A DNA stretch of 54,410 bases from a virus. Lineage: Duplodnaviria; Caudoviricetes. The position numbers were made by a program, and so were the translations under genes. The notes beneath the pieces are model-generated. The model did not search any database. It was not told the origin of the DNA and worked only from the letters and a program-made list of their open reading frames with translations. The stretch lies in IMG/VR virus record IMGVR_UViG_3300029266_000978, positions 1 to 54,410 of that record; one strand, given 5' to 3'. Shown here one piece after another: positions 6,962 to 50,096 of this stretch; the first letter of the stretch is position 1, and every line of letters starts with the position of its first letter.

Positions 6962-8515
6962 ATGCAATATAATAATCCTAGTGAGATAGTTAAAACTCTT
7001 ACATTCGGAAAAGAAGCGAATGACCAAATAATAGCAGGTGTCGAAAAGTTAGCAAACGCAGTAAAGTCCACATTAGGGGCTTCAGGAAAATGCGTAATTT
7101 ACGAAGACTCTGCAGGAAAACCGGTAATTACAAAAGACGGAGTAACCGTTGCAGAAAGCGTAGTCTTATTACATCCGGTTGAGAATATAGGAGCGACCCT
7201 TATAAAGCAAGCAGCAAGAAACACTGTAAGAGAAGCAGGTGACGGTACAACAACATCTACCGTCCTTGCTAACTCTTTATTAAAGATTACAAACAAACAT
7301 TTAGATGAAGAAAAAGTTAGAGAACTTAAAGCAGGCATTATTAGCGGTGCTGACAAAGTTAAAATATATCTTGATAAAACCAGTACTGTTGTTAAAGGCG
7401 CGATGTTACAAAACGTCGCTATCATTAGCTGCAATAACGATAAAGAACTTGGAACCAAAATTGGCCAAGCTTATGAGCAAGTTGGAAAGAATGGAGTTGT
7501 ATTAATGGAAGAATCCGAAACGAATGAAACTTATGTTGATTTTGTTGAGGGTGTACAATTTGATAGTGGATTAAAGTCTACTCATTTAATAACAGACAAA
7601 GACAAGCATACAGCTGTTTTAGACAACCCTTACGTACTTATTGTTTCTTCTCCTATTCCTAATATAAGAAAGATACAAAGTATCTTAGAACACGTTATAA
7701 AGGAAAAAAGAAGTTTACTTATAGTTGCAGATATGGAACAACAACCATATGCTACATTATTATCAAATAAGGTAAAAGGAAATATAAAAGTAAACATTGT
7801 AGATGTACCAGGTTTTGGATTAACAAGACAAGATACTATGGATGATTTAGCTATTCTTACCGGAGCCATTATAATGAACGAAGAATTAGGTGATGATTTA
7901 GATTTAATTAATCCTGAGGTATTAGGTAGCGTTAAGAAATCTGTTACAGATGAAAAGTCTACAGTATTACAAATTGAAGCTTCTGATGATGTTACTGAAC
8001 GAATAGCTGAAGTAACTAAAAGTATAGAGAATGAAAATAATCCATTCTTTAAAAAGAAATTAGAACAACGCTTATCAATGCTATCTGGACAAGTTGGCAT
8101 TATATATGTAGGAGCTGATACAGAAATAGAATTAAAAGAAAAGAAAGATAGAGTAGAGGATGCAATTCATGCAACCAAAGCGGCTTACAAAGAAGGTATT
8201 GTTGCAGGAGGTGGAGTTGCTTTATTAAATGCTGCCATGTCTATTAAGCCAAAAAACAAAGGAGAAGAGATTCTTTTGGAATCAATTAAATCACCTTATT
8301 ATACTATTTTAGATAATGCGGGTATTGTTGAGATTAAAAAACAAACCATAAAGAATAGGGGTATTGATGTTAAGACTGGCAAAGAAGTTAATATGATTAA
8401 AGCCGGTATTATAGATCCAGTGTTAGTTACTAAGTCTGCTCTTAAAAATGCAGTAAGTGTAGTAACAACTATTGTATCTGCCGATTGTGTAATTAGTAAT
8501 AAAAGATTAGCATAA
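6962..8515 (+). CDS. groEL: Phage-encoded GroEL-like chaperonin
   Basis: Motifs ITKDGVTVA, AGDGTTT, KEKKDRVEDA, GIVAGGG and GIIDP; 517 aa with no GGM tail. Confidence 0.95.
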   Translation: MQYNNPSEIVKTLTFGKEANDQIIAGVEKLANAVKSTLGASGKCVIYEDSAGKPVITKDGVTVAESVVLLHPVENIGATLIKQAARNTVREAGDGTTTSTVLANSLLKITNKHLDEEKVRELKAGIISGADKVKIYLDKTSTVVKGAMLQNVAIISCNNDKELGTKIGQAYEQVGKNGVVLMEESETNETYVDFVEGVQFDSGLKSTHLITDKDKHTAVLDNPYVLIVSSPIPNIRKIQSILEHVIKEKRSLLIVADMEQQPYATLLSNKVKGNIKVNIVDVPGFGLTRQDTMDDLAILTGAIIMNEELGDDLDLINPEVLGSVKKSVTDEKSTVLQIEASDDVTERIAEVTKSIENENNPFFKKKLEQRLSMLSGQVGIIYVGADTEIELKEKKDRVEDAIHATKAAYKEGIVAGGGVALLNAAMSIKPKNKGEEILLESIKSPYYTILDNAGIVEIKKQTIKNRGIDVKTGKEVNMIKAGIIDPVLVTKSALKNAVSVVTTIVSADCVISNKRLA

Positions 8516-8772
8516 TGCAAGCAATCAATTATTTTTTAATTATAGAAAAGATCAAAGAAGCTCCGAAGAAAGTAGGAGGTATTGAATTGACAGAAAAGCA
8601 AGATAGCGACGTTAGATATTTAAAAGCTAATGTAATTAGTGTAGGAGATAAGATTGAAGGCATTAAACCCGGTGCTTCTATAAGGTACGATAAACACGCA
8701 GGTCACGGAATAGAATGGAATGACAAGCTTTATTATGTTATTAAAGTTAGCGATGTAGTTATTGTAGAATGA
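8515..8772 (+). CDS. groES: GroES-like co-chaperonin
   Basis: 85 aa with KKVGGIEL mobile loop and ANVISVG; TAATG overlap with groEL. Confidence 0.9.
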   Translation: MQAINYFLIIEKIKEAPKKVGGIELTEKQDSDVRYLKANVISVGDKIEGIKPGASIRYDKHAGHGIEWNDKLYYVIKVSDVVIVE

Positions 8773-12536: not shown

Positions 12537-12935
12537 ATGAAAAAGTTATTTGCATGGCTTACAGGTAGCGTTGTCAAAGAAATTGGTAACGCTATCGACA
12601 AGCTTACAACTACAAAAGAGGAAAAGCTTATTATTAAAAAGCAAGTTCTAGAAATATTAGAGAAGGCTGATACCAATGCACAAGAACAGGTAACAGATCG
12701 TTGGATGGCGGATATGAATTCAGATAGTTACTTATCTAAAAACATTCGTCCTATGATACTTATATATATAACTTTTATATTTACAGCATTAGCTTTTACA
12801 GATGGGAACATTGGAGAGTTTCAAGTAGCAAAAGAATATATACCTATATTTCAAACTTTGTTAGTTACCGTTTACGGTGCTTATTTTGTTGGAAGAACAT
12901 GGGAAAAAGCAACAAAAATAAATAAAAATAAATAA
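12537..12935 (+). CDS. Holin (GTA 3TM-like)
   Basis: RWMADMNSDSYLSKNIRP, two hydrophobic helices and AYFVGRTWEK. Confidence 0.8.
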   Translation: MKKLFAWLTGSVVKEIGNAIDKLTTTKEEKLIIKKQVLEILEKADTNAQEQVTDRWMADMNSDSYLSKNIRPMILIYITFIFTALAFTDGNIGEFQVAKEYIPIFQTLLVTVYGAYFVGRTWEKATKINKNK

Positions 12936-14002: not shown

Positions 14003-14198
14003 TATCGGTAAAGACTATAAAAATGACGCCATGCACTACGCTGTTGGACAGGAAGTGTATGGTGGTCATATTATAAAGAATATAATTGAAGAAGAAAATA
14101 AGTACTCAATTTATATTGAAAAGAATAGTGAACTAATGCCTTGGAAAGATTTTAATAAAAACATGGCGATTGCGGTTGAATATGATTTGCAATATTAA
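13977..14198 (+). CDS. Hypothetical protein
   Basis: 73 aa from ATG 13977 (IVRKISIGKDYKNDAMHYAVGQ); TAATG-coupled to the next gene. Confidence 0.7.
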   Translation: MKNIVRKISIGKDYKNDAMHYAVGQEVYGGHIIKNIIEEENKYSIYIEKNSELMPWKDFNKNMAIAVEYDLQY

Positions 14199-14815
14199 TG
14201 AAAGCTATATACGAATTTGTAGTAGAACCTATAGGGGAAAGATATAACAATGCAATAGAAATAGAAGGCAAAGAACTTTTGCTAAATACTGAAATGCAAA
14301 ATCATAGTTACTCAAATAGGCAAGCTAAAGTTTTAGCAATACCTACGGGAATAGCTACAGATATAGAAGTAGGTGATGAAGTGCTTATTCACCATAATGT
14401 TTTTAGACGTTTTAGAAACATTAGAGGAGACGAAGTAAACAGCAGGTCTTATTATAAAGACAACATATACTTTGCAAGCGAGGATCAAATATACGCTTAT
14501 AATAGAATAGATGAAAGTTGTGGTTGTAATTCTTGGAAAGCTTGTATAGGGTATAACTTTGTTAAGCCTATTAAAGAAACTAAAATGTTTTCTAATGATA
14601 TAGAAAAACCTGGAATAGGTATTTTGTATTTAAAAGATGCAGAGCTACAAGGAGTAGCAGAACAAGATTTAATCGGGTTTAGGCCCGGGGCAGAGTACGA
14701 ATTCATTGTAAATGGACATAGAGTATTCAGAGTACCCACTAATTCAATTACAATCAAATATGAATATCAAGGAAACGAAGAAGAATATAATCCTGGCTGG
14801 ACACAAAGCAGTTGA
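14198..14815 (+). CDS. Long GroES-like protein (probably two tandem Cpn10-like domains)
   Basis: FVVEP...AKVLAIP...IEVGDEVLIHHN, then a second FVKP...GIL...DLIGFRPGAEYEFIVNG unit. Confidence 0.6.
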   Translation: MKAIYEFVVEPIGERYNNAIEIEGKELLLNTEMQNHSYSNRQAKVLAIPTGIATDIEVGDEVLIHHNVFRRFRNIRGDEVNSRSYYKDNIYFASEDQIYAYNRIDESCGCNSWKACIGYNFVKPIKETKMFSNDIEKPGIGILYLKDAELQGVAEQDLIGFRPGAEYEFIVNGHRVFRVPTNSITIKYEYQGNEEEYNPGWTQSS

Positions 14816-15035
14816 AGAACTTATTAAAGTAGCTAAGGAGGCTATTGTTGATTCAGGAGAAGATATTACAGCGGATAGATTAAAGAATGCAGCGGCAACT
14901 AAAAAGCTAGCTATATTTGATGCGTTCGAAATTCTTAACAGAATACAAGAGGAGCAAGATATTCTTGATGAAAAACCTAGAGAAATAAAAGAAGAAGAGT
15001 CTTTCAAAGGTTTTGCTGAAAAAAGATCTAAATAA
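14760..15035 (+). CDS. Putative terminase small subunit
   Basis: Helical 91-aa protein (RLKNAAATKKLAIFDAFEIL) with TAATG overlap onto the large subunit. Confidence 0.6.
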   Translation: MNIKETKKNIILAGHKAVEELIKVAKEAIVDSGEDITADRLKNAAATKKLAIFDAFEILNRIQEEQDILDEKPREIKEEESFKGFAEKRSK

Positions 15036-17248
15036 TGTACAAGCAAACATTATATAAAATAATAACTCCTGTCAAATCAAACACTATATCTAGGCTAAAT
15101 AAAGCTAAGAAGTGGGAATATGGTTATAACAAAGAACACGATATTGTGGTTATAAGCAAGACAGGACAAATAGGTGATATATATAATATACAAAATCTTA
15201 AAATAGCATTACCTAAAAGACCATCTAAAATAGATGATTCTACTAACAAGTGGACACCAGAAGAATATCCTAAAGAGTTAAAGGCTATTAATAGCATATT
15301 TGACTGGAGGGATTATCCTGAAACGTTCAAATTAAAATGGGGACAATACATAGATGAGCAATTTAATAAAAGAGAAAACGGTTACTGGTTCAATAATAAG
15401 GGCTTGGGTACTTACATTACTGGTACTCACTTTATGTACCTGCAGTGGTCCAAGATTGATGTTGGGCAACCAGACTTTAGAGAATCAAATAGATTATTCT
15501 ACATTTTCTGGGAAGCTTGTAAAGCAGACAGACGATGTTATGGTATGTCATATCTCAAGAATAGACGTAGCGGCTTTTCATTCATGGCGTCTGGCGAGAC
15601 CGTTAATATGGCCACGATATCAAGTGATGCACGGTTTGGGATTTTGTCCAAATCTGGCGCCGATGCGAAAAAAATGTTCACTGATAAGGTTGTACCCATT
15701 AGTGTTAACTTCCCGTTTTTCTTTAAACCAGTACAGGATGGGATGGACCGCCCAAAGACCGAACTCGCCTATCGTGTACCCGCATCAAAATTTACCAGGA
15801 GGAGACTCGATAATAATAAAGCCACTGAAACCATCGCCGGTCTGGACACGACCATCGACTGGAAGAACACAGGTGATAACGCCTATGATGGGGAGAAACT
15901 CAAACTCCTCGTCCACGACGAAAGTGGTAAATGGGAAAGGCCGAACAACATCCTCAACAATTGGCGTGTTACCAAAACGACATTAAGATTAGGTTCTAGA
16001 ATTATTGGAAAGTGTATGATGGGATCAACATCAAATGCTTTAGATAAAGGTGGTTCAAATTTTAAAAAGTTATATAACAATTCAAACGTATTAAAAAGAA
16101 ACAAGAACGGGCAAACAGCTTCAGGATTATATTCTCTTTTTATTCCTATGGAATGGAATTATGAAGGATTTATTGATGAATATGGATATCCTGTTTTTGA
16201 TACACCTAAAGACACTGTTCTGGGCCCGTTTAAAGACGTTATAGACGTTGGGGTTATTGAGCACTGGAATAATGAGGCTGAAGGATTAAAGAGCGATCAG
16301 GATGCTTTAAATGAATTTTATAGACAGTTCCCAAGAACAGAGGAACATGCGTTTAGAGATGAAACAAAAAATAGTATATTTAATTTAGTTAAAATATACG
16401 AACAAATAGATTACAATGAGGACTTACATAATACAAATGTATTAACAACTGGAAGTTTTCAATGGGCTAGCGGTATAAAAGACTCTACAGTTTTATTTAC
16501 GCCTAATCCAAATGGTAGATTTAAAATATCTTGGGTTCCTGGTGCAAATTTGCAAAACAGGCAAGAGGTTAGAAAAGGATTAAGAATTCCAGGTAATCAA
16601 CATATGGGTGCTTTTGGTTGTGATAGTTATGATATATCAGGAACAACTGATGGCCAAGGATCTAAGGGTGCTTTGCACGGATTGACTAAATTCAGCATGG
16701 AAGATGCTCCCGCTAATACATTTTTTTTAGAGTATATAGCTAGACCACAAACCGCTGAAATGTTTTTTGAAGATGTACTAATGGCTTGCGTATTTTATGG
16801 TATGCCTTTATTATGTGAAAATAACAAACCAAGACTTTTATATTATTTTAAAAGAAGAGGCTATCGAGGATATTCTATGAATAGACCTGATAAGGTTTGG
16901 AATAAGTTATCGGTTACCGAAAGAGAAATAGGTGGAATGCCTAACTCAAGTGAAGATATTAAGCAAGCTCATGCAGCGGCTATTGAAACATATATTGATA
17001 ATTATGTCGGATTACAAGAAGATGGTCAGTATGGAACAATGTATTTTAATAATACATTAAATGATTGGGCAGGATTTGATATAAACAATAGAACGAAGTT
17101 TGATGCTGCTATAAGTTCTGGACTTGCTGTAATGGCTTGTAACAGACATTTATATCATCCAAAACAAAAAGTTGAAAGAGAACAATTAAGTTTAAAAATA
17201 GCTAAATACACCAACAGTGGTGGTTTATCAAAATTAATAGAAAAATAA
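15035..17248 (+). CDS. terL: Terminase large subunit
   Basis: Walker A-like KNRRSGFS, Walker B LLVHDESGK, coupling motif GSTSN, and nuclease GCDSYD...FDAAIS. Confidence 0.92.
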   Translation: MYKQTLYKIITPVKSNTISRLNKAKKWEYGYNKEHDIVVISKTGQIGDIYNIQNLKIALPKRPSKIDDSTNKWTPEEYPKELKAINSIFDWRDYPETFKLKWGQYIDEQFNKRENGYWFNNKGLGTYITGTHFMYLQWSKIDVGQPDFRESNRLFYIFWEACKADRRCYGMSYLKNRRSGFSFMASGETVNMATISSDARFGILSKSGADAKKMFTDKVVPISVNFPFFFKPVQDGMDRPKTELAYRVPASKFTRRRLDNNKATETIAGLDTTIDWKNTGDNAYDGEKLKLLVHDESGKWERPNNILNNWRVTKTTLRLGSRIIGKCMMGSTSNALDKGGSNFKKLYNNSNVLKRNKNGQTASGLYSLFIPMEWNYEGFIDEYGYPVFDTPKDTVLGPFKDVIDVGVIEHWNNEAEGLKSDQDALNEFYRQFPRTEEHAFRDETKNSIFNLVKIYEQIDYNEDLHNTNVLTTGSFQWASGIKDSTVLFTPNPNGRFKISWVPGANLQNRQEVRKGLRIPGNQHMGAFGCDSYDISGTTDGQGSKGALHGLTKFSMEDAPANTFFLEYIARPQTAEMFFEDVLMACVFYGMPLLCENNKPRLLYYFKRRGYRGYSMNRPDKVWNKLSVTEREIGGMPNSSEDIKQAHAAAIETYIDNYVGLQEDGQYGTMYFNNTLNDWAGFDINNRTKFDAAISSGLAVMACNRHLYHPKQKVEREQLSLKIAKYTNSGGLSKLIEK
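15354..15986 (+). CDS. Candidate overprinted (+1 frame) lipoprotein inside terminase
   Basis: 210 stop-free codons, hydrophobic WVLTLLVLTLCTC signal and a local shift to C/G-ending terminase codons. Confidence 0.5.
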   Translation: MSNLIKEKTVTGSIIRAWVLTLLVLTLCTCSGPRLMLGNQTLENQIDYSTFSGKLVKQTDDVMVCHISRIDVAAFHSWRLARPLIWPRYQVMHGLGFCPNLAPMRKKCSLIRLYPLVLTSRFSLNQYRMGWTAQRPNSPIVYPHQNLPGGDSIIIKPLKPSPVWTRPSTGRTQVITPMMGRNSNSSSTTKVVNGKGRTTSSTIGVLPKRH

Positions 17249-17252
17249 AAAT

Positions 17253-19682
17253 ATGGCTGAGTCAGTTGTAACAAGTTATTTTCCAAGCCAGATTGCTAGC
17301 GATGCGGAAAAAATGTCTATGGACTATGGAACTACTATTGGTAGAGCTATAGAACGTGAGTGGTTTAATAATGACAATGGTGGTGGTAGTAGGTTTAAAA
17401 GCAATCAAATTACATTTCACAATTTAAGATTATACGCAAGAGGAGAACAACCAATACAAAAATACAAAGATGAATTATCTATAAATGGAGATTTATCTTA
17501 TCTTAATTTAGACTGGAAACCAGTTCCAATTATACCCAAATTTGTGGATATAGTTGTTAATGGTATATCTGATAGATTATTTGACATAAGAGCTTATTCT
17601 CAAGATCCTTACGGAGTTGATAAAAGAACAAGGTATATGGAATCTCTTATTAGAGATATGCAAACAAAAGAACTTAATACTTTTGTTCAAGAAAATTTTG
17701 GTGTTAATTTATTTGAAAACAATCCAGAAACATTACCTAAAAACAAAGAAGAATTAGATTTACATATGCAGCTTACCTATAAGCAGCAAGTAGAAATTGC
17801 GGAAGAACAAGCAATACAGGTACTACTAGATGGTAACAAATATGACTTAACTAAAAGACGTTGTAATTATGATTTAACTACAATAGGTATTGGTGCAGTT
17901 AAAAATACTTTTACAAAAGCTGAAGGAGCTTTAATTGATTATGTAGATCCAGTAAATTTAATTTGGTCTTATACAGAATCACCTTATTTTGATGACATAT
18001 ATTATGTAGGAGAAGTAAGGTCTGTGCATTTAAATGAATTAAAAAAAGAATTTCCTGGATTAACTAATGATGAATTGCAATCAATTGCAGGTCAGTCAGT
18101 TAGTAACAATGGGTTTTATGATAGAACTATTAGCACTTCTAACCAGGACGATTCCAATACTGTTCAAGTCCTTTATTTTAATTATAAGACTTTTACAAAC
18201 GAAGTTTATAAAGTTAAAGAGACGGCAACAGGAGCTGCAAAGATAATACCTAAAACTGATGAATTTAATCCTCCGCCAGAAATGTATGAGGAGTATGGTA
18301 TTGAAAAATTATCTCAATCAATAGAAGTATTATATGAGGGAGTTAAAGTTGTAGGGGGCAGAATGCTTAAATGGGAGCTAGCTAAAAACATGATAAGACC
18401 TAAGAGTGATTACACTAAGGTTAAAATGAATTATAGTATTACAGCACCTAGAATGTATAAAGGTAGAATAGAATCTGTAGTAAGTCGTATAACAGGCTTT
18501 GCAGATATGATTCAACTTACACATTTAAAGCTACAACAAGTAATGTCAAGAATGGTGCCGGATGGTGTTTATCTTGATGCTGATGGTTTAGCTGAAGTTG
18601 ATTTAGGTAATGGTACAAATTACAATCCTCAGGAAGCTCTTAATATGTTTTTTCAAACAGGTTCTGTAATTGGTAGATCTATGACCCAAGACGGTGATAT
18701 GAATCCAGGCAAAGTACCTATTCAAGAAATACAAACCGGTGCAGGTGGTGGAAAAATGCAAGCATTAATTGGAAATTACAATTATTACATGCAAATGATT
18801 CGCGATGTAACTGGATTAAACGAAGCTAGAGATGGAAGTACTCCTGACGCAAGAGCTTTAGTGGGTGTTCAAAAAATGGCAGCAGCTAATTCAAATGTTG
18901 CAACAAGACATATATTAGACGGTAGTTTATTTTTAACGTCGGATTTATGCGAAGGGTTATCATTAAGAATATCCGATATTTTAGAATACTCTCCAACACG
19001 AGATGCTTTTATACATAAAATAGGTAATCAAAATGTAGCAGTTCTTGAAGAAATGAAAGACTTATATTTATACGACTTTGGTATCTTTATTGAATTACAA
19101 CCAGATGAAGAAGAAAGAGCTATATTGGAAAACAATATTCAAGCAGCTGTTCAAAGCGGATTAATAGATTTATCGGATGCCATTGATCTTAGAGAAGTAA
19201 GAAGTCTTAAACTTGCTAATCAATTGCTAAAAATAAGAAGAGTAGCTAAGCAAAAGCTGGATCAAGAAATGCAACAGCAAAACATCCAAGCTCAGGCTCA
19301 AGCCAATGCTCAAGCACAACAAGTGGCTGCTCAAGCAGAAGTTCAAAAAGGCCAAGCTTTAATACAACAAAAAATTGCATTAGTGCAAGCTCAAGCAGAA
19401 ATAGACAAACAAAAAATGATGCAAGAAGCTGCTTTGAAAAAAGAGTTAATGCAATTAGAGTTTGAAATGAACATGCAGCTTAAAGGTATTGAAGTTAGCG
19501 GGGTTAAAAGAGAAATTACGGAAAAAGAAGATAGAAAGGACGAAAGAACTAAACTACAAGCTTCTCAACAAAGTGAACTAATACAACAAAGACAAAACAA
19601 TTTGCCAGCTCAAAACTTTGAATCAAGTGGATTTGATACAATGGGCGGTGGTTTTAACTTAGGTTCGTCAGACCCTAGGTAA
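17253..19682 (+). CDS. Portal protein
   Basis: 809 aa following terL, with IIPKFVDIVVNG, IRDVTGLNEARDG and a Gln-rich C-terminal coiled coil. Confidence 0.88.
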   Translation: MAESVVTSYFPSQIASDAEKMSMDYGTTIGRAIEREWFNNDNGGGSRFKSNQITFHNLRLYARGEQPIQKYKDELSINGDLSYLNLDWKPVPIIPKFVDIVVNGISDRLFDIRAYSQDPYGVDKRTRYMESLIRDMQTKELNTFVQENFGVNLFENNPETLPKNKEELDLHMQLTYKQQVEIAEEQAIQVLLDGNKYDLTKRRCNYDLTTIGIGAVKNTFTKAEGALIDYVDPVNLIWSYTESPYFDDIYYVGEVRSVHLNELKKEFPGLTNDELQSIAGQSVSNNGFYDRTISTSNQDDSNTVQVLYFNYKTFTNEVYKVKETATGAAKIIPKTDEFNPPPEMYEEYGIEKLSQSIEVLYEGVKVVGGRMLKWELAKNMIRPKSDYTKVKMNYSITAPRMYKGRIESVVSRITGFADMIQLTHLKLQQVMSRMVPDGVYLDADGLAEVDLGNGTNYNPQEALNMFFQTGSVIGRSMTQDGDMNPGKVPIQEIQTGAGGGKMQALIGNYNYYMQMIRDVTGLNEARDGSTPDARALVGVQKMAAANSNVATRHILDGSLFLTSDLCEGLSLRISDILEYSPTRDAFIHKIGNQNVAVLEEMKDLYLYDFGIFIELQPDEEERAILENNIQAAVQSGLIDLSDAIDLREVRSLKLANQLLKIRRVAKQKLDQEMQQQNIQAQAQANAQAQQVAAQAEVQKGQALIQQKIALVQAQAEIDKQKMMQEAALKKELMQLEFEMNMQLKGIEVSGVKREITEKEDRKDERTKLQASQQSELIQQRQNNLPAQNFESSGFDTMGGGFNLGSSDPR

Positions 19683-41689: not shown

Positions 41690-41851
41690 ATGAATTTAAG
41701 TGAATTGAAGTTGTATATTATAAATGGTAGCGCTATAGGCGTAACTACTTATACGCAAATTGAAGATTGGTTAAAAATAATATTGCTGGTTGTCACTATA
41801 GGTTATACTGTAGCAAAATGGTCATATGTAAAAAAGAAAGATAATGAATGA
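41690..41851 (+). CDS. Small holin-like membrane protein (53 aa, not in ORF track)
   Basis: MNLSELKLYIINGSAIGVTTYTQIEDWLKIILLVVTIGYTVAKWSYVKKKDNE; ATGA overlap with the endolysin. Confidence 0.7.
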   Translation: MNLSELKLYIINGSAIGVTTYTQIEDWLKIILLVVTIGYTVAKWSYVKKKDNE

Positions 41852-42198
41852 GATACTTTAAAATAGAAGAATTTGATTCGCCTGACGAACCAGGTAGCGG
41901 TGAGAATATGAGTAAAGAATTACTAGCTATGCTTGAAATTGTAAGAAAAATGTATGGCCCTGTAATTATAAATTCAGGATACCGTTCTATTGATCACAAT
42001 AAAAAAGTTGGTGGAAAAGTAACGTCATCTCATTTAAAAGGTTTAGCTGTTGATATTGCATGCAATAACTCAATAGATAGATTTAAATTAACAGGCATAT
42101 TAAGAAAGGTAGGCTTTACTAGAATAGGTGTAGGCAAAACATTTATTCATGCAGATATTGATAAAACAAAAACAACTCACGTAATGTGGGTATATTAA
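41848..42198 (+). CDS. Endolysin, peptidase M15A family
   Basis: INSGYR...HN..VGG..SSHLKGLAVDI...FIHAD zinc peptidase motifs. Confidence 0.9.
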   Translation: MRYFKIEEFDSPDEPGSGENMSKELLAMLEIVRKMYGPVIINSGYRSIDHNKKVGGKVTSSHLKGLAVDIACNNSIDRFKLTGILRKVGFTRIGVGKTFIHADIDKTKTTHVMWVY

Positions 42199-42659: not shown

Positions 42660-44378
42660 CTAACCATCACACGCTACGCAATCTTCATTCATTGCTTGAG
42701 CGGCAATATCTCCACGTAGAACACTTTCTGTTCTAGTATAATATAAAGTTTTTACTCCATTTTTCCACGCATCCATATGCACTTTGTTAAGCCACTTAGG
42801 TGTTGCTTCACTTGGAAAAGCTAAGTTTAAACTTACTGATTGATCTATATACTGCTGTCTTAATCCAGCCTGCTTAACTAATTCTAATTGATTTATCTCT
42901 TTAAAAGTTTTAAAAACTTCTTTCGCAGGTATATCATGCCCAACTCTAATATCATTAAGTTGATCAATATCTTGTACGGAACCTCCGTCAGCAAGTATCT
43001 TATTCCATACTTCTTCATTATTTAATTTGTGTTTTCTTAATAACTTAACTAATGTAGGATTCTTCCTTATAAAAGTTCCTTTAGCGCTTTGCTCTGTAAA
43101 TACATTAGCAGCCCAAGGTTCTATCCCCGCAGAAACATTACCACTAAGCTTACTATTAGATACAGTGGGAGCAACAGCACGCAAATGAGTATTACGCATA
43201 CCAGTACCAACACACCAAAGAGGTTCACCATAGATCTCTGCAAGGTCCATTGAAGCTCGCTCACTTTCAATTTTAATCTGCGAAAAAATCTTCCTAGTCT
43301 CAAACTGAGATAATAAACCTTCGAAAGGAATACCTTTTTCCTGGAGATATGTATGCCATCCAAGTGCGCCCAATCCCAGTGCTCTCCCTTTTTGTGCAGA
43401 TCGAATAGAGTTTTCGAACCCACGTAAGCCTTTGGCTCTCTGAATAAATTCTTCCATAACGCCATCAAGAAAGAATATGGAGTCATATATAAGGTTAGTG
43501 TCTTTCCACTCTTCATACTTAGCTAAATTTAATGATGATAAACAACATACAAAACTATGGTTTTCATCTGTGTGTAATGTAATTTCAGAGCATATGTTTG
43601 TCATATGAACTTTTAATCCGTTTTGTTTATATGCTGGAGGATTAGCTTTATTAACATTTCCTTTAAACATAATATAAGGTTCTCCTGTTGCTTTACGCTT
43701 TCTAAGTAGCTTGCTCCATTTATTTCTAGATTCAGGATCTCCTTGTTCTAGCTTACGCATAAACTTATCTCCTACTACTGCACATTGATGCAAGTTAAGT
43801 GATTGTCTATTTACATCTCCTTTAGGTTCTCTAATCTCAAGCCAGTCTTCAAAATCCCCATGCTCTATATTCATATTAACACTCGCAGCACCTCTTCTAA
43901 CTGAGCCTTGGTTTGTAGCTAATATAGTAGAATCATATATTTTACAGAAGGGTACAACACCATCAGAAGTTCCATTTCCAGTTATTCTAGTTCCTGCAGG
44001 TCTTATTTGATTAATACCAATTCCTACACCGCCGCCGTGTTTAGCTAGCAACATCATTTCTAAATTCTTTTGACCTATGTCCTGGATAGAGTCTGCAACA
44101 TCAATGCCAAAGCAAGAGATAGGGAGGCCACGGTCAGTACCAGTATTACTAAGTACCGGACTTGCGAGGCATAACCATCCATTCCATATGTAACTAAAAA
44201 ACGTTTCAGCCATTTCAGGCTTATATAATCTACGAGCAACTGTTTTAGCGACTCTTTGGTATGCTTCTTTAGGCGTTTCTCCGTCGAATAAATATCCCCC
44301 GGATATAGTCTTCTTGTATACGTCTGTATTACCCCACGCAGGGTAATCTTCTCCTTTAATCCAGTTTTCATTCCACAT
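42660..44378 (-). CDS. nrdA: Ribonucleotide reductase class I alpha subunit
   Basis: LPISCF, NICSEI, VCCLSSLN, APTVSNS, KTLYY and C-terminal CVAC; no ATP cone. Confidence 0.95.
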   Translation of the reverse strand: MWNENWIKGEDYPAWGNTDVYKKTISGGYLFDGETPKEAYQRVAKTVARRLYKPEMAETFFSYIWNGWLCLASPVLSNTGTDRGLPISCFGIDVADSIQDIGQKNLEMMLLAKHGGGVGIGINQIRPAGTRITGNGTSDGVVPFCKIYDSTILATNQGSVRRGAASVNMNIEHGDFEDWLEIREPKGDVNRQSLNLHQCAVVGDKFMRKLEQGDPESRNKWSKLLRKRKATGEPYIMFKGNVNKANPPAYKQNGLKVHMTNICSEITLHTDENHSFVCCLSSLNLAKYEEWKDTNLIYDSIFFLDGVMEEFIQRAKGLRGFENSIRSAQKGRALGLGALGWHTYLQEKGIPFEGLLSQFETRKIFSQIKIESERASMDLAEIYGEPLWCVGTGMRNTHLRAVAPTVSNSKLSGNVSAGIEPWAANVFTEQSAKGTFIRKNPTLVKLLRKHKLNNEEVWNKILADGGSVQDIDQLNDIRVGHDIPAKEVFKTFKEINQLELVKQAGLRQQYIDQSVSLNLAFPSEATPKWLNKVHMDAWKNGVKTLYYTRTESVLRGDIAAQAMNEDCVACDG

Positions 44379-48374: not shown

Positions 48375-50096
48375 TTATTCCCATGGCATTTTTTCGCCGC
48401 TAACATTAATTTGTTCATGAGGTATAAAACAACCTGACTTCGGTTCCCATTTAAAATGTGCTTCAGCTCCATTAGTACCTAAGTTTTGAAACTTAACTTT
48501 TAACACTTTAGCTTTAACAGTTTTCTGTTCATAATCTCTATGAACTAATATACCATGATAAGAAGCATCATACCATTCACCTCCTCCTTTAATGTTATAC
48601 ATTGTAGGTTCTTCTATTTGTCCTTGTTGATTCTTATACATCTTAGTAGGATGTGCAACAATAAATACTAATACGTCATACTTCTTAGCAAAGAGTTCAA
48701 TCTTCATTAAGTATTCCATAGTATATCTATTAACATCCTCAGTCTTACAATCTACATCTCTTACCTTATTGAATGGATCAATGACTAAACATTTAATACC
48801 TTTACGTTTAACTAGCTCAGCTCCTTTACGAAGAACAGATTCTAAAGTATAACGTTCCATATCAATGTGGAAATAATTACTATTACAATGATCAGCTACT
48901 TGATTCCATCTTTCCCCACCAATATCTTCTTTAGTAGGCATGCCTTGCCAAGTCTTACGCATTAATTTATGAGCGTGTAAATAAGTTGGTTGATTCTCCG
49001 GCGAAGCAAAAGCCGTTTTCCATCCATAATTAGTATTGTATCCAATAACCATTTGATCGACAAAATCTGACTTACCGGAAGACGGAATGCCAGTAACAGT
49101 AATGAATTGACCAGTGTAAGTTGAAAAGATATCGTCAAAATTTTGAAGGCCAACTTGAAATCCTGGTTTAAAGCCATTGCGAACAAAGTCGGTAACTTCA
49201 TCTTCAACATCCCTGAACGTTGTAACATTCTCGAGAGGTACAGGTCTTGCTCCTTCAATTCTCTCTGATAGTTTTTGTTTTCCATATTTTTGTAGGTATT
49301 CATTTGCATCTTTGCAATCATCGAATGATGCTAGATAACAAACTTCAGAGCCTAACCTTCTGACTAATTCAGATTGTAATGCTTGTCCAGCTTCATCGGA
49401 ATCACATGCTAATATTATCTTTTCTTTATCGCTAAAGTAATCAATACAAGCATCTAAGTATTCTAAGTTATTTGTGTTAAGAGTTGCACCATTAGGAACA
49501 GATATAGCGTTTGGTATACCGGCTTCATGCAATGCTAATACATCCATTTCACCTTCTACTATAACACAATATTCATATCCTATTATACTATTTATATTAT
49601 AGAATACTTTTTCAGCACCCTTATATAACTTAAAGTTTTTTCTTCCATCGCGATACTTAATATTAATAAGTTGATCACCCATAAAATAATTAAACTTTAT
49701 AACATTCTCGGTTTTACCGGTCTGAGGCATAAACTCAGGACCCTCACTGATATTTAAATCAATAAGAGTCTGAGTAGATATTCCTCTTGTTTTAAACCAT
49801 TCAATTACTTTATCACTGACAAACTCAGGATTCGCACTAGTAGTCTTAGTGACTGGTCTAACGTAGGTTTTTTCACTAGCTCCCTTACGTTGGTACGTAT
49901 GTAATTGAAATGATGTATTACAATTGTGACAAGTACCGAGACCACGTTCCCAGTCGTAAGAAGCACACTTTGCTTTTACATTTTTGGGTTTTCTATCAGG
50001 AGAACAGTTAGGGCATATACCCTGTTTCTTTCCTTCCTCAAGCTTATGTTGATTGAATTCATCAATCTCAAATCCATTGATCTCTGTTGTCTGCAT
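48375..50096 (-). CDS. Bifunctional DNA primase-helicase (T7 gp4 / Twinkle-like)
   Basis: Zinc finger CPNC...CHNC, TOPRIM VEGEMD and DSDEAG, Walker A GIPSSGKS, and LVIDP. Confidence 0.93.
   Translation of the reverse strand: MQTTEINGFEIDEFNQHKLEEGKKQGICPNCSPDRKPKNVKAKCASYDWERGLGTCHNCNTSFQLHTYQRKGASEKTYVRPVTKTTSANPEFVSDKVIEWFKTRGISTQTLIDLNISEGPEFMPQTGKTENVIKFNYFMGDQLINIKYRDGRKNFKLYKGAEKVFYNINSIIGYEYCVIVEGEMDVLALHEAGIPNAISVPNGATLNTNNLEYLDACIDYFSDKEKIILACDSDEAGQALQSELVRRLGSEVCYLASFDDCKDANEYLQKYGKQKLSERIEGARPVPLENVTTFRDVEDEVTDFVRNGFKPGFQVGLQNFDDIFSTYTGQFITVTGIPSSGKSDFVDQMVIGYNTNYGWKTAFASPENQPTYLHAHKLMRKTWQGMPTKEDIGGERWNQVADHCNSNYFHIDMERYTLESVLRKGAELVKRKGIKCLVIDPFNKVRDVDCKTEDVNRYTMEYLMKIELFAKKYDVLVFIVAHPTKMYKNQQGQIEEPTMYNIKGGGEWYDASYHGILVHRDYEQKTVKAKVLKVKFQNLGTNGAEAHFKWEPKSGCFIPHEQINVSGEKMPWE

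Follow-up and report, generated by a model that had tools for sequence, protein, structure and literature searches.

The stretch of DNA analysed here (the window) was a virus record of 54,410 bases, IMG/VR record IMGVR_UViG_3300029266_000978 (Duplodnaviria; Caudoviricetes). Its gene for the terminase large subunit (terL) contained a second open reading frame (ORF) of 210 codons in the +1 frame, at positions 15354..15986, which is very probably a genuine protein-coding gene overprinted on the N-terminal half of terL, judging from codon-level comparison. This half would carry the ATPase domain; terL had no sequence match among solved structures, so the ATPase-domain and Walker-B assignments used below are provisional. 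The features of the locus were as follows.

15035..17248 (+), terL, terminase large subunit of 737 amino acids (aa), the host gene in frame 0; phrog_6681, E 3.9e-164; 80 homologous loci at 74-84% aa identity
15351..15353 (+), TAG that closes the +1 frame upstream and abuts the ATG (terL ATA + G)
15354..15986 (+), candidate overprinted +1-frame gene, 210 codons and TAA, ATG start, wholly within terL
15354..15401 (+), basic n-region of its product, aa 1-16, MSNLIKEKTVTGSIIR; K+R 3, D+E 1; no synonymous constraint
15402..15467 (+), conserved hydrophobic core and motif, aa 17-38, AWVLTLLVLTLCTCSGPRLMLG; putative signal peptide or signal anchor
15468..15875 (+), variable basic Pro/Ser/Thr/Arg-rich middle, aa 39-174; open, with C/G-rich terL third positions, sequence not conserved
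15876..15983 (+), C-terminal Ser/Thr-rich basic block, aa 175-210, ...GRNSNSSSTT..NGKGRTTSSTIG..KRH

The embedded ORF began at terL offset 319, that is, in frame +1, and its TAA (15984..15986) was formed from a terL TTA codon and the following A. The +1 frame of terL contained 38 stops, none of them in the codons of the ORF; the TAA of the ORF was the 11th, and the gap before it was 211 codons. The GC content was 0.43-0.47 in the ORF region against about 0.32 around it, and the GC content of terL third codon positions (GC3) was 0.48 within the ORF against 0.21 for the remaining terL. The sequence-only reading of this DNA had described a 210-codon +1 ORF inside the 737-aa ORF, a switch of the terL codons to C/G endings (AAA CTC AAA CTC CTC GTC CAC GAC, found at 15896..15919), a return to TTA right at the +1 stop, and a product with a basic N-terminus, a hydrophobic stretch and a Pro/Ser/Thr-rich C-terminal half. 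All of these were found as described.

The length of the ORF was beyond chance. In 25 other large genes of the window the density of +1 stops was 0.087 per codon and the longest +1 open run was 134 codons, and a geometric estimate gave about 6e-6 expected runs of at least 211 codons. Because a raised local GC3 alone lowers the frequency of stops, shuffling was kept internal to the segment: synonymous codons were permuted within it, so that the terL protein and the local codon usage and GC3 were retained. The 5000 local shuffles had a mean of 4.7 stops, and the zero stops present in the window were reached in 0.14% of them (P ~0.001), under a null that is slightly generous in that xTG codons before A are under-used across terL in all groups and that ORF-lacking genomes too tended to slightly fewer stops than their own shuffles. 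Resampling with the codon usage of the remaining terL gave a mean of 11.9 stops and never reached zero. The codon-shuffling test of ORF length proposed by the sequence-only reading thus came out in favour of the ORF.

Comparison with homologues was based on the best 80 of at least 600 terL relatives in IMG/VR (74-84% aa identity), codon-aligned with the window to give 81 genes. The orthologous segment spanned terL codon indices 106-316; these and all terL codon indices below are counted from 0. The +1 segment was fully open in 20 of the 81 genes (window included), each with a shuffle P of <=0.002 and a segment GC3 of 0.41-0.54 against 0.20-0.32 elsewhere. Genes with 1-8 stops (33/81) mostly had the same starting point and an earlier end, after 138-209 codons, while those with 9-18 stops (28/81) showed no GC3 rise, and the ones with 13-18 stops matched their own shuffles. 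Counted by length, the +1 frame was open for at least 180 codons in 33 of the 81 genes. The GC3 rise ended at each genome's own +1 stop, with GC3 falling from 0.40 in the ORF to 0.22 after it in L001 and L004, from 0.47 to 0.26 in L007, from 0.48 to 0.28 in L009 and from 0.30 to 0.17 in L038.

A second search of IMG/VR, made with an alignment of the +1 proteins, gave at least 587 confirmed stretches among at least 600 matched, and the best 80 were kept. The anchor motif was present in 78 of these; 18 were loci of the first set and 60 were new. All 60 new loci were open and all carried C[TI]C[SN]G, and GC3 was higher in the segment than after it in 58/58. An ATG lay 13-35 residues ahead of the first Cys in 51 of the 60. 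By the number of codons after the core, the loci fell into classes of 178-188 codons (35 loci, with the C-terminal motif in 35/35), 155 codons (13 loci, ending G/V/E-K/R-N), 127-133 codons (11 loci) and shorter (1 locus). As this set was selected by similarity to the +1 protein, it cannot supply frequencies. Conservation of the +1 ORF across homologous terL genes, named by the sequence-only reading as a check, was thus observed both in the first set and in the 60 further loci.

Discrete lengths with conserved stop positions were also seen across both sets (L096-L175, L001-L080): about 160 aa; about 182 aa, ending ..G(R/K)N just before NSSS; and 210-215 aa with TTSSTTGG. Some forms were open for up to 259 codons through an N-terminal extension. 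Each of the short length classes was common to many diverged loci, so these may be maintained isoforms rather than stages of decay. The protein collection contained 56 called proteins of the +1 family, all of them lacking both Pfam domains and informative source names, and a profile search gave 150 representative clusters (50% identity), 81 of them at E <=1e-30.

For the analysis of selection, the ORF-bearing group comprised 33 genes in which the open frame began at or before index 105 and ran for at least 180 codons, and the ORF-lacking group comprised 33 genes with an open run of at most 60 codons around index 180; the other 15 of the 81 were excluded. The TAG before the ATG (terL ATA + G) was shared by 19/33 ORF-bearing and 28/33 ORF-lacking homologues. 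Between ORF-bearing pairs, the synonymous codon difference was 0.445 inside the segment and 0.430 outside. A synonymous difference of 44.5% among ORF-bearing genes implies that the open state has been maintained and is not merely recent. The ratio of synonymous diversity in the ORF-bearing to that in the ORF-lacking group was 0.67-0.81 only at indices 120-160, the lowest in the gene, and 0.92-1.46 elsewhere, with 1.05-1.46 over the ORF middle. Extra synonymous constraint on the host gene was therefore local to indices 120-160, and was seen neither over the ORF middle nor on average. Normal synonymous rates, which the sequence-only reading had held to speak against a hidden gene, were accordingly found on average and not over the hydrophobic N-terminal part.

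Within this part, terL codons were nearly fixed in the ORF-bearing genes. Thr128 was ACT in 33/33 (ORF-lacking: ACA 15, ACT 6), Tyr134 was TAC in 32/33 (ORF-lacking: TAT 24), and Leu135 was TTG or CTG in 33/33 (ORF-lacking: TTA 14, CTT 7, CTA 4, TTG 4). The same tendency was found at Thr125 (ACT, 31/33), Thr130 (ACT, 27/33), Gln136 (CAG, 29/33), Lys139 (AAG, 26/33), Ile140 (ATT, 31/33), Val142 (GTT, 27/33) and Gly143 (GGG, 27/33). ORF-lacking genes used ACA, TAT, TTA/CTT and CAA freely. Several of the rejected codons would not create a stop in the +1 frame and would instead change its residue (Leu to Gln, Cys to Tyr/Phe, Thr to Ile, Ser to Asn), which points to selection on the identity of the +1 residue. 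The +1 identity over the hydrophobic part was 0.72, against 0.50 for the virtual +1 reading of ORF-lacking genes (terL identity 0.84 and 0.86, respectively).

A second group of retained codons was found in the C-terminal block of the 20 full-length forms: Ile305 ATC in 20/20, Asp303 GAC in 19/20, Asn304 AAC in 18/20, Leu291 CTC in 18/20, Leu306 CTC in 17/20 and Val292 GTC in 17/20. These nearly fixed C-ending codons yield the +1 motif NSSS...NGKGRTTSSTTGG.RK, and the block overlaps the terL stretch KLKLLVHDE, which may be Walker-B-like.

The third-base composition of terL differed from region to region, as listed below for ORF-bearing and then ORF-lacking genes.

Hydrophobic core: T 0.66, A 0.01; T 0.38, A 0.28
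Tail: C 0.25, G 0.20; C 0.11, G 0.13
C-terminal block: C 0.38, G 0.26; C 0.14, G 0.12
Remaining terL: A.37, C.13, G.13, T.37; the same within 0.02

The third base of a terL codon is the second base of a +1 codon, so a T at this site encodes hydrophobic residues, and a C or G encodes Ser, Pro, Thr, Ala, Arg or Gly. The pattern is what a hydrophobic anchor followed by a polar disordered tail would require, and not a uniform GC shift.

Avoidance of stops was specific to context. In the tail of the 20 full-length forms, xTA codons (Leu/Ile/Val) made up 99/214 before a pyrimidine and 0/295 before a purine, against 348/500 and 576/946 in the remaining terL of the same 20 genes. The 46% use of xTA where it is harmless indicates that the avoidance was not compositional. 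Tail-only shuffles gave P <=0.024 for all 20 full-length forms. Met followed by a codon starting with A, which makes TGA unavoidable, occurred in 0/112 cases in the ORF-bearing segment against 19/170 in the ORF-lacking one (groups themselves defined by the open frame), which suggests that the terL protein itself has accommodated the second frame. The terL protein was also slightly less conserved with the ORF than without it over segment indices 106-280 (0.66 vs 0.76, 0.88 vs 0.95 and 0.85 vs 0.90; L001-L080), and equally conserved elsewhere. This lower conservation suggests a cost or an accommodation imposed by the second frame.

A tree was built from terL outside the segment and rooted with Elemovirus and MW202828, in which the longest +1 runs were 55 and 47 codons, respectively. 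A 173-codon form stood at the base of the tree. One clade of 34 was mostly ORF-bearing, and a clade of 46 consisted of ORF-bearing members and a nested ORF-lacking clade of 33 members (support 0.993; placement 0.49-0.80). Read most simply, the ORF arose once, was lost once long ago, and has been lost or truncated at least six times more recently (L013, L027, L036, L075/L077, L028 and L029). In sister pairs, G or C stood where the ORF-less partner had A or T at 71 sites against 11 in the opposite direction inside the segment for L020 vs L036 (52 vs 37 outside it), and at 67 against 19 inside the segment for L043 vs L028. On this comparison, lineages that lost the frame appear to have reverted to A/T, and only inside the segment. 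Five phage records without the ORF (40-75% complete) contained no free-standing copy of the gene: the sole match in them was the terL locus itself, where the frame had 11-16 stops. All cultured terL relatives infect Flavobacteriia, at a terL identity of <=45%, and the uncultured MW202828 reached 61.7%. The two relatives examined had no long +1 run, and no laboratory phage with the ORF was found.

The predicted product of 210 aa has a pI of 10.7 and one hydrophobic stretch, at about aa 14-30; its tail contains 24 K+R and 6 D+E, and the last 110 residues contain 12 Pro, 24 Ser+Thr, 17 K+R and 1 D+E. Its C-terminus is polar and basic, with no C-terminal membrane segment. A Met start was present in 29/29 aligned proteins, 27-66 residues ahead of the Cys motif. 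In 29/29 of these, 14 uncharged residues ran up to the second Cys and were followed by Ser-Gly; this core is Leu-rich and ends Cys-Thr-Cys-Ser-Gly. The 15 residues ahead of it had a median net charge of +3 (range 0 to 5), and the median behind it was +1. By rule of thumb this is a Sec-type arrangement, with a basic n-region, an uncharged hydrophobic core and small residues after it, and the n-h-c layout would suit either a Sec signal peptide or a short signal anchor that keeps the N-terminus inside. A canonical lipobox ([LVI][ASTVI][GAS]C, a PROSITE-type rule) was absent from all 29 aligned members and from all 60 further loci. The residue before the first Cys was Thr, Ile or Leu and that before the second was Thr, in the contexts LITC, LTLC, LIIC and xCTC. 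AlphaFold2, run on the 29-sequence alignment, gave a helix at residues 3-30 (predicted local distance difference test, pLDDT, ~70), with pLDDT <50 for residues 32-206 and a mean of 40.3.

Local shuffles, homologues, codon-level constraint and sister pairs therefore disfavour both chance and a GC-rich patch, and the hidden gene in terL postulated by the sequence-only reading is upheld as very probable. Several observations weigh against it. Searches of Pfam, PHROGs, NCBIfam and PADLOC gave the product no match with a meaningful E-value, and no named relative or fold was identified for it. There was no average reduction of the synonymous difference; the +1 identity of the product middle (0.44) was below that of the virtual control (0.51), and that of the C-terminal block (0.65) was no higher than its control (0.62), so the constraint on this block is read from its C-ending codons alone, which are retained where ORF-lacking genes show an A/T bias. 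The zero counts for xTA before purines and for Met before A are partly built in by the definition of the groups. The first comparison was based wholly on the best 80 of the terL relatives, the second set was selected on the +1 protein, and 9 of its 60 new loci, all of the shortest class, had no ATG 13-35 residues before the first Cys. Some tree nodes were weakly supported (0.36-0.49), and the loss in the 33-member clade together with at least six more makes the gene dispensable. Contigs of three RNA libraries cover only parts of 14700..16300, and such coverage shows neither transcription, strand, start nor translation, while gaps and depth have no meaning for contigs; none of the 23 variant letters in those runs makes a +1 stop, though few would be expected to.

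An open frame that is a mere by-product, either of a segment from a GC-richer donor or of a GC3 rise internal to terL, would account for the segment GC3 of ORF-bearing genes (0.41-0.54 vs 0.20-0.32 elsewhere), and the higher GC3 does cut the expected stops from about 12 to about 4.7. This explanation is nevertheless highly improbable. With local codon usage kept, zero stops has a P of ~0.001 per genome; the hydrophobic core is T-rich and not GC-rich; xTA accounts for 46% of cases before pyrimidines and for none before purines; and in each genome the GC3 rise halts where that genome has its +1 stop. The tree of the segment largely agrees with that of terL outside it, directional differences between sister pairs are confined to the segment, and the terL protein is collinear with the outgroups. 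The recombinant patch from a GC-richer donor, which the sequence-only reading had offered as a refutation of its own proposal, was thereby largely refuted. A non-coding RNA or DNA element in terL (a structured RNA, a packaging signal or a regulatory site) would agree with the departure of the local composition from the remaining genome, but is scarcely credible: no Rfam family was found at E up to 1 in 14500..17500, the segment shows codon periodicity, +1-dependent stop avoidance and residue-specific codon choice, and third positions in the middle vary freely, unlike those of a structured element. Recoding, by ribosomal frameshifting or transcriptional slippage out of terL, would instead fuse the terL N-terminus to the +1 polypeptide. 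Database proteins do join the two frames (P0001, P0031, P0040, P0051, P0053, P0055 and P0056), the usual ATG is missing from 9/60 new loci, and in some forms the open frame extends well ahead of the usual start, to as many as 259 codons. The chimeras, however, switch frame at varied places and in both directions, like assembly or sequencing indels; a +1 stop lies directly before the ATG in most genes; the ATG is present in 51/60 new loci and a Met start in 29/29 aligned proteins; and an N-terminal signal-like segment is sensible only near a free N-terminus. Recoding is thus very unlikely. The chimeric proteins, to which P0054 may be added as a further called example, are most simply frameshift errors in assemblies, and only the open +1 frame lets them pass as long genes.

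The sequence-only reading had further labelled the product an imperfect-lipobox lipoprotein, possibly spanin-like. This would make it an Rz1-type o-spanin or else an exclusion lipoprotein, cleaved by signal peptidase II, carrying a lipid on one of the conserved Cys residues and, as a spanin, acting in the last, outer-membrane step of lysis. The basic n-region, the short Leu-rich core, the invariant Cys-Thr-Cys at a fixed distance from the start and the Pro/Ser/Thr-rich tail suit this label. No other lipobox ORF was found in our own scan of the window (one antisense match was of no weight), and a holin gene lies on the same strand 2.4 kb upstream. Look-alikes of the homologue P0012 in the ESM Atlas, all with scores <=0.88 and to be taken as leads only, included a viral cluster automatically named 'Lipoprotein family protein' (0.88) and a Bacteroidota UPF0323 lipoprotein family (0.79). 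The label is nonetheless unlikely and was not retained, with the lipobox found in 0/89 sequences. No i-spanin-like gene encloses or adjoins the ORF, no partner was identified that combines a type II membrane anchor with a coiled coil, the product of 210 aa has no C-terminal membrane segment, and its mature part of about 180 residues is far above Rz1-type size. Repeated loss suits an accessory gene and not an essential lysis step, unless ORF-lacking phages have a substitute; no spanin-like substitute was found in three partial ORF-lacking genomes, in which a few ORFs with one membrane segment had no counterpart in the window.

The overprinted gene thus remains the preferred reading. It would probably have arisen de novo in the ancestor of this marine phage group, to be kept in many lineages and lost in others. 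The ORF lies in the late region, on the same strand as the holin gene. Translation would start at the internal ATG on the late terL mRNA, and the n-region and core would serve as a signal peptide or signal anchor of the Sec type, leaving the N-terminus inside and the tail outside. The long disordered middle is under selection for composition and openness and not for sequence. In that case the protein would work at the cell envelope, late in infection, as an accessory that the phage can do without. A Bacteroidetes-type promoter (TTTG..TAnnTTTG) had 2 matches in the window against 3.1 expected, none of them upstream of the ORF, which has no bearing either way.

The neighbouring gene and the lysis-related genes of the window were as follows.

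12537..12935 (+), holin gene, same strand, 2.4 kb upstream of the ORF; phrog_3427, E 2.6e-26
17253..19682, portal gene, 3' of terL; phrog_6547
41848..42198 (+), endolysin-like peptidase gene, 26 kb from the ORF; phrog_894, E 2.9e-25

Of the holins and the endolysin mentioned by the sequence-only reading, one holin and one endolysin-like peptidase were confirmed in the phage; both are given here as context. Its remark that no spanin is visible held in a crude scan of the window, and carries little weight as a pointer to a hidden one, since the absence of a visible spanin is common in flavobacterial phages. If the gene is real, a role as a lysis accessory or at an outer-membrane step is possible, superinfection exclusion or another envelope modification is just as possible, and something else is a more substantial prospect, short of an even chance. 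A more specific and rather doubtful suggestion is that the product is the missing envelope-disruption factor of a large group of marine flavobacterial phages, with an inner-membrane anchor, a strongly basic disordered chain of sufficient length to span the periplasm and a conserved Ser/Thr-rich tip that engages the outer membrane or cell wall. If so, a spanin-like job would be done by a de novo protein without a coiled coil or lipid anchor, and the placement of its gene in terL would tie its dose and timing to DNA packaging.

The product was compared with known lysis proteins and overprinted genes. It has one N-terminal hydrophobic stretch, no C-terminal membrane segment and no lipobox, and so does not have the make-up of a u-spanin of the T1 gp11 type. 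The o-spanin encoded by the lambda gene Rz1 is about 60 aa long and has a true lipobox; its gene lies entirely within Rz, in the +1 frame. The ORF resembles it as an embedded +1 gene whose product starts with a basic n-region, continues into a hydrophobic core with a Cys right behind it, and is rich in Pro, with export predicted here. It differs in that Rz is the functional partner of Rz1 and lies beside the holin and endolysin genes, whereas here the host is terL, no i-spanin-like gene was recognised to make up a lysis cassette, and the product is 210 aa with no lipobox in 89 sequences. The phiX174 gene E (91 aa) lies in the +1 frame of the scaffold gene D and is the sole lysis gene of a tiny single-stranded DNA phage. 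Both are +1 genes on a morphogenesis gene, with a conserved N-terminal membrane segment and a basic C-terminal part of free sequence; here the phage is double-stranded, and the long forms have a conserved C-terminal motif. Because the phage has its own holin and endolysin-like genes, the analogy fits the architecture and not membership among sole lysis genes. In T7, genes 19.2 and 19.3 are annotated as out-of-frame ORFs inside gene 19, the large terminase gene of this podovirus. They are likewise out of frame in a large-terminase gene, but short (<100 codons), and we know of no comparative or functional evidence for them; neither '19.2' nor '19.3' was mentioned in a T7 paper searched for these names.

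As a kind, overprinted phage genes are already known. Overprinted virus genes in general are the subject of a review by Pavesi 2021 (PMC8227390), and a mycobacteriophage tail-tip case appears in a 2025 meeting report (PMC12908700). The likeness lies in a new protein from an alternative frame, disordered, of biased composition and of restricted phylogenetic range; the difference lies in a new gene family, a new host gene, a 633-base overlap and many natural losses. No report of a gene embedded in terL was found in full-text searches of a collection without most subscription journals. The terL host and the product family thus appear to be new, and the ORF stands out for its length, its host gene and its repeated loss.

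Standard annotation pipelines discard ORFs inside known genes, and here such an ORF would be a widespread family of 150 clusters. It lies on the presumed ATPase half of an enzyme that is both essential and conserved, and its mark on terL is visible: Met is avoided before codons starting with A, and the protein evolves slightly faster where the ORF is present. The many independent losses and the directional reversion of third positions provide a natural experiment in which the mutual constraint of overlapping frames is measurable, and which also informs the birth and maintenance of a de novo protein made of an anchor followed by a disordered tail. Should the product act in lysis or exclusion, it would bear on how Bacteroidota phages handle the outer membrane; according to passages of PMC8776804, spanins are rarely recognised in such phages and are named in only some flavobacterial ones.

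Near-identical phage DNA (14700..16300) was present in marine and seawater metagenome runs of at least seven studies, 2017-2025, with 14 runs holding at least half of the sampled words, and parts of the same interval were found in contigs of marine and aquatic RNA libraries. The phage lineage is widespread and recurrent.

Other long +1 runs were noted in the window. The ribonucleotide reductase large-subunit gene at 42660..44378 (-) (phrog_84, E 7.7e-148) contained a 134-codon +1 open run at about 43121..43516 (-), where local shuffles expect 3.9 stops (P = 0.0027) and GC3 was 0.32 inside against 0.23 outside. Its virtual product ends in a strongly hydrophobic stretch, and the run may be a second overprinted candidate. 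The primase/helicase gene at 48375..50096 (-) contained a 123-codon +1 open run at about 48962..49321 (-), for which shuffles expect 1.5 stops (P = 0.05) and which is probably due to chance. Two GroES-like co-chaperonin genes were found, at 8515..8772 (+) (phrog_3188, E 3.6e-11) and at 14198..14815 (+) (phrog_13932, E 1.4e-15). The latter, a short way upstream of terL, encodes a 205-aa protein whose C-terminus carries a long extension, and in the Elemovirus relative a GroES gene is likewise located directly ahead of terL.

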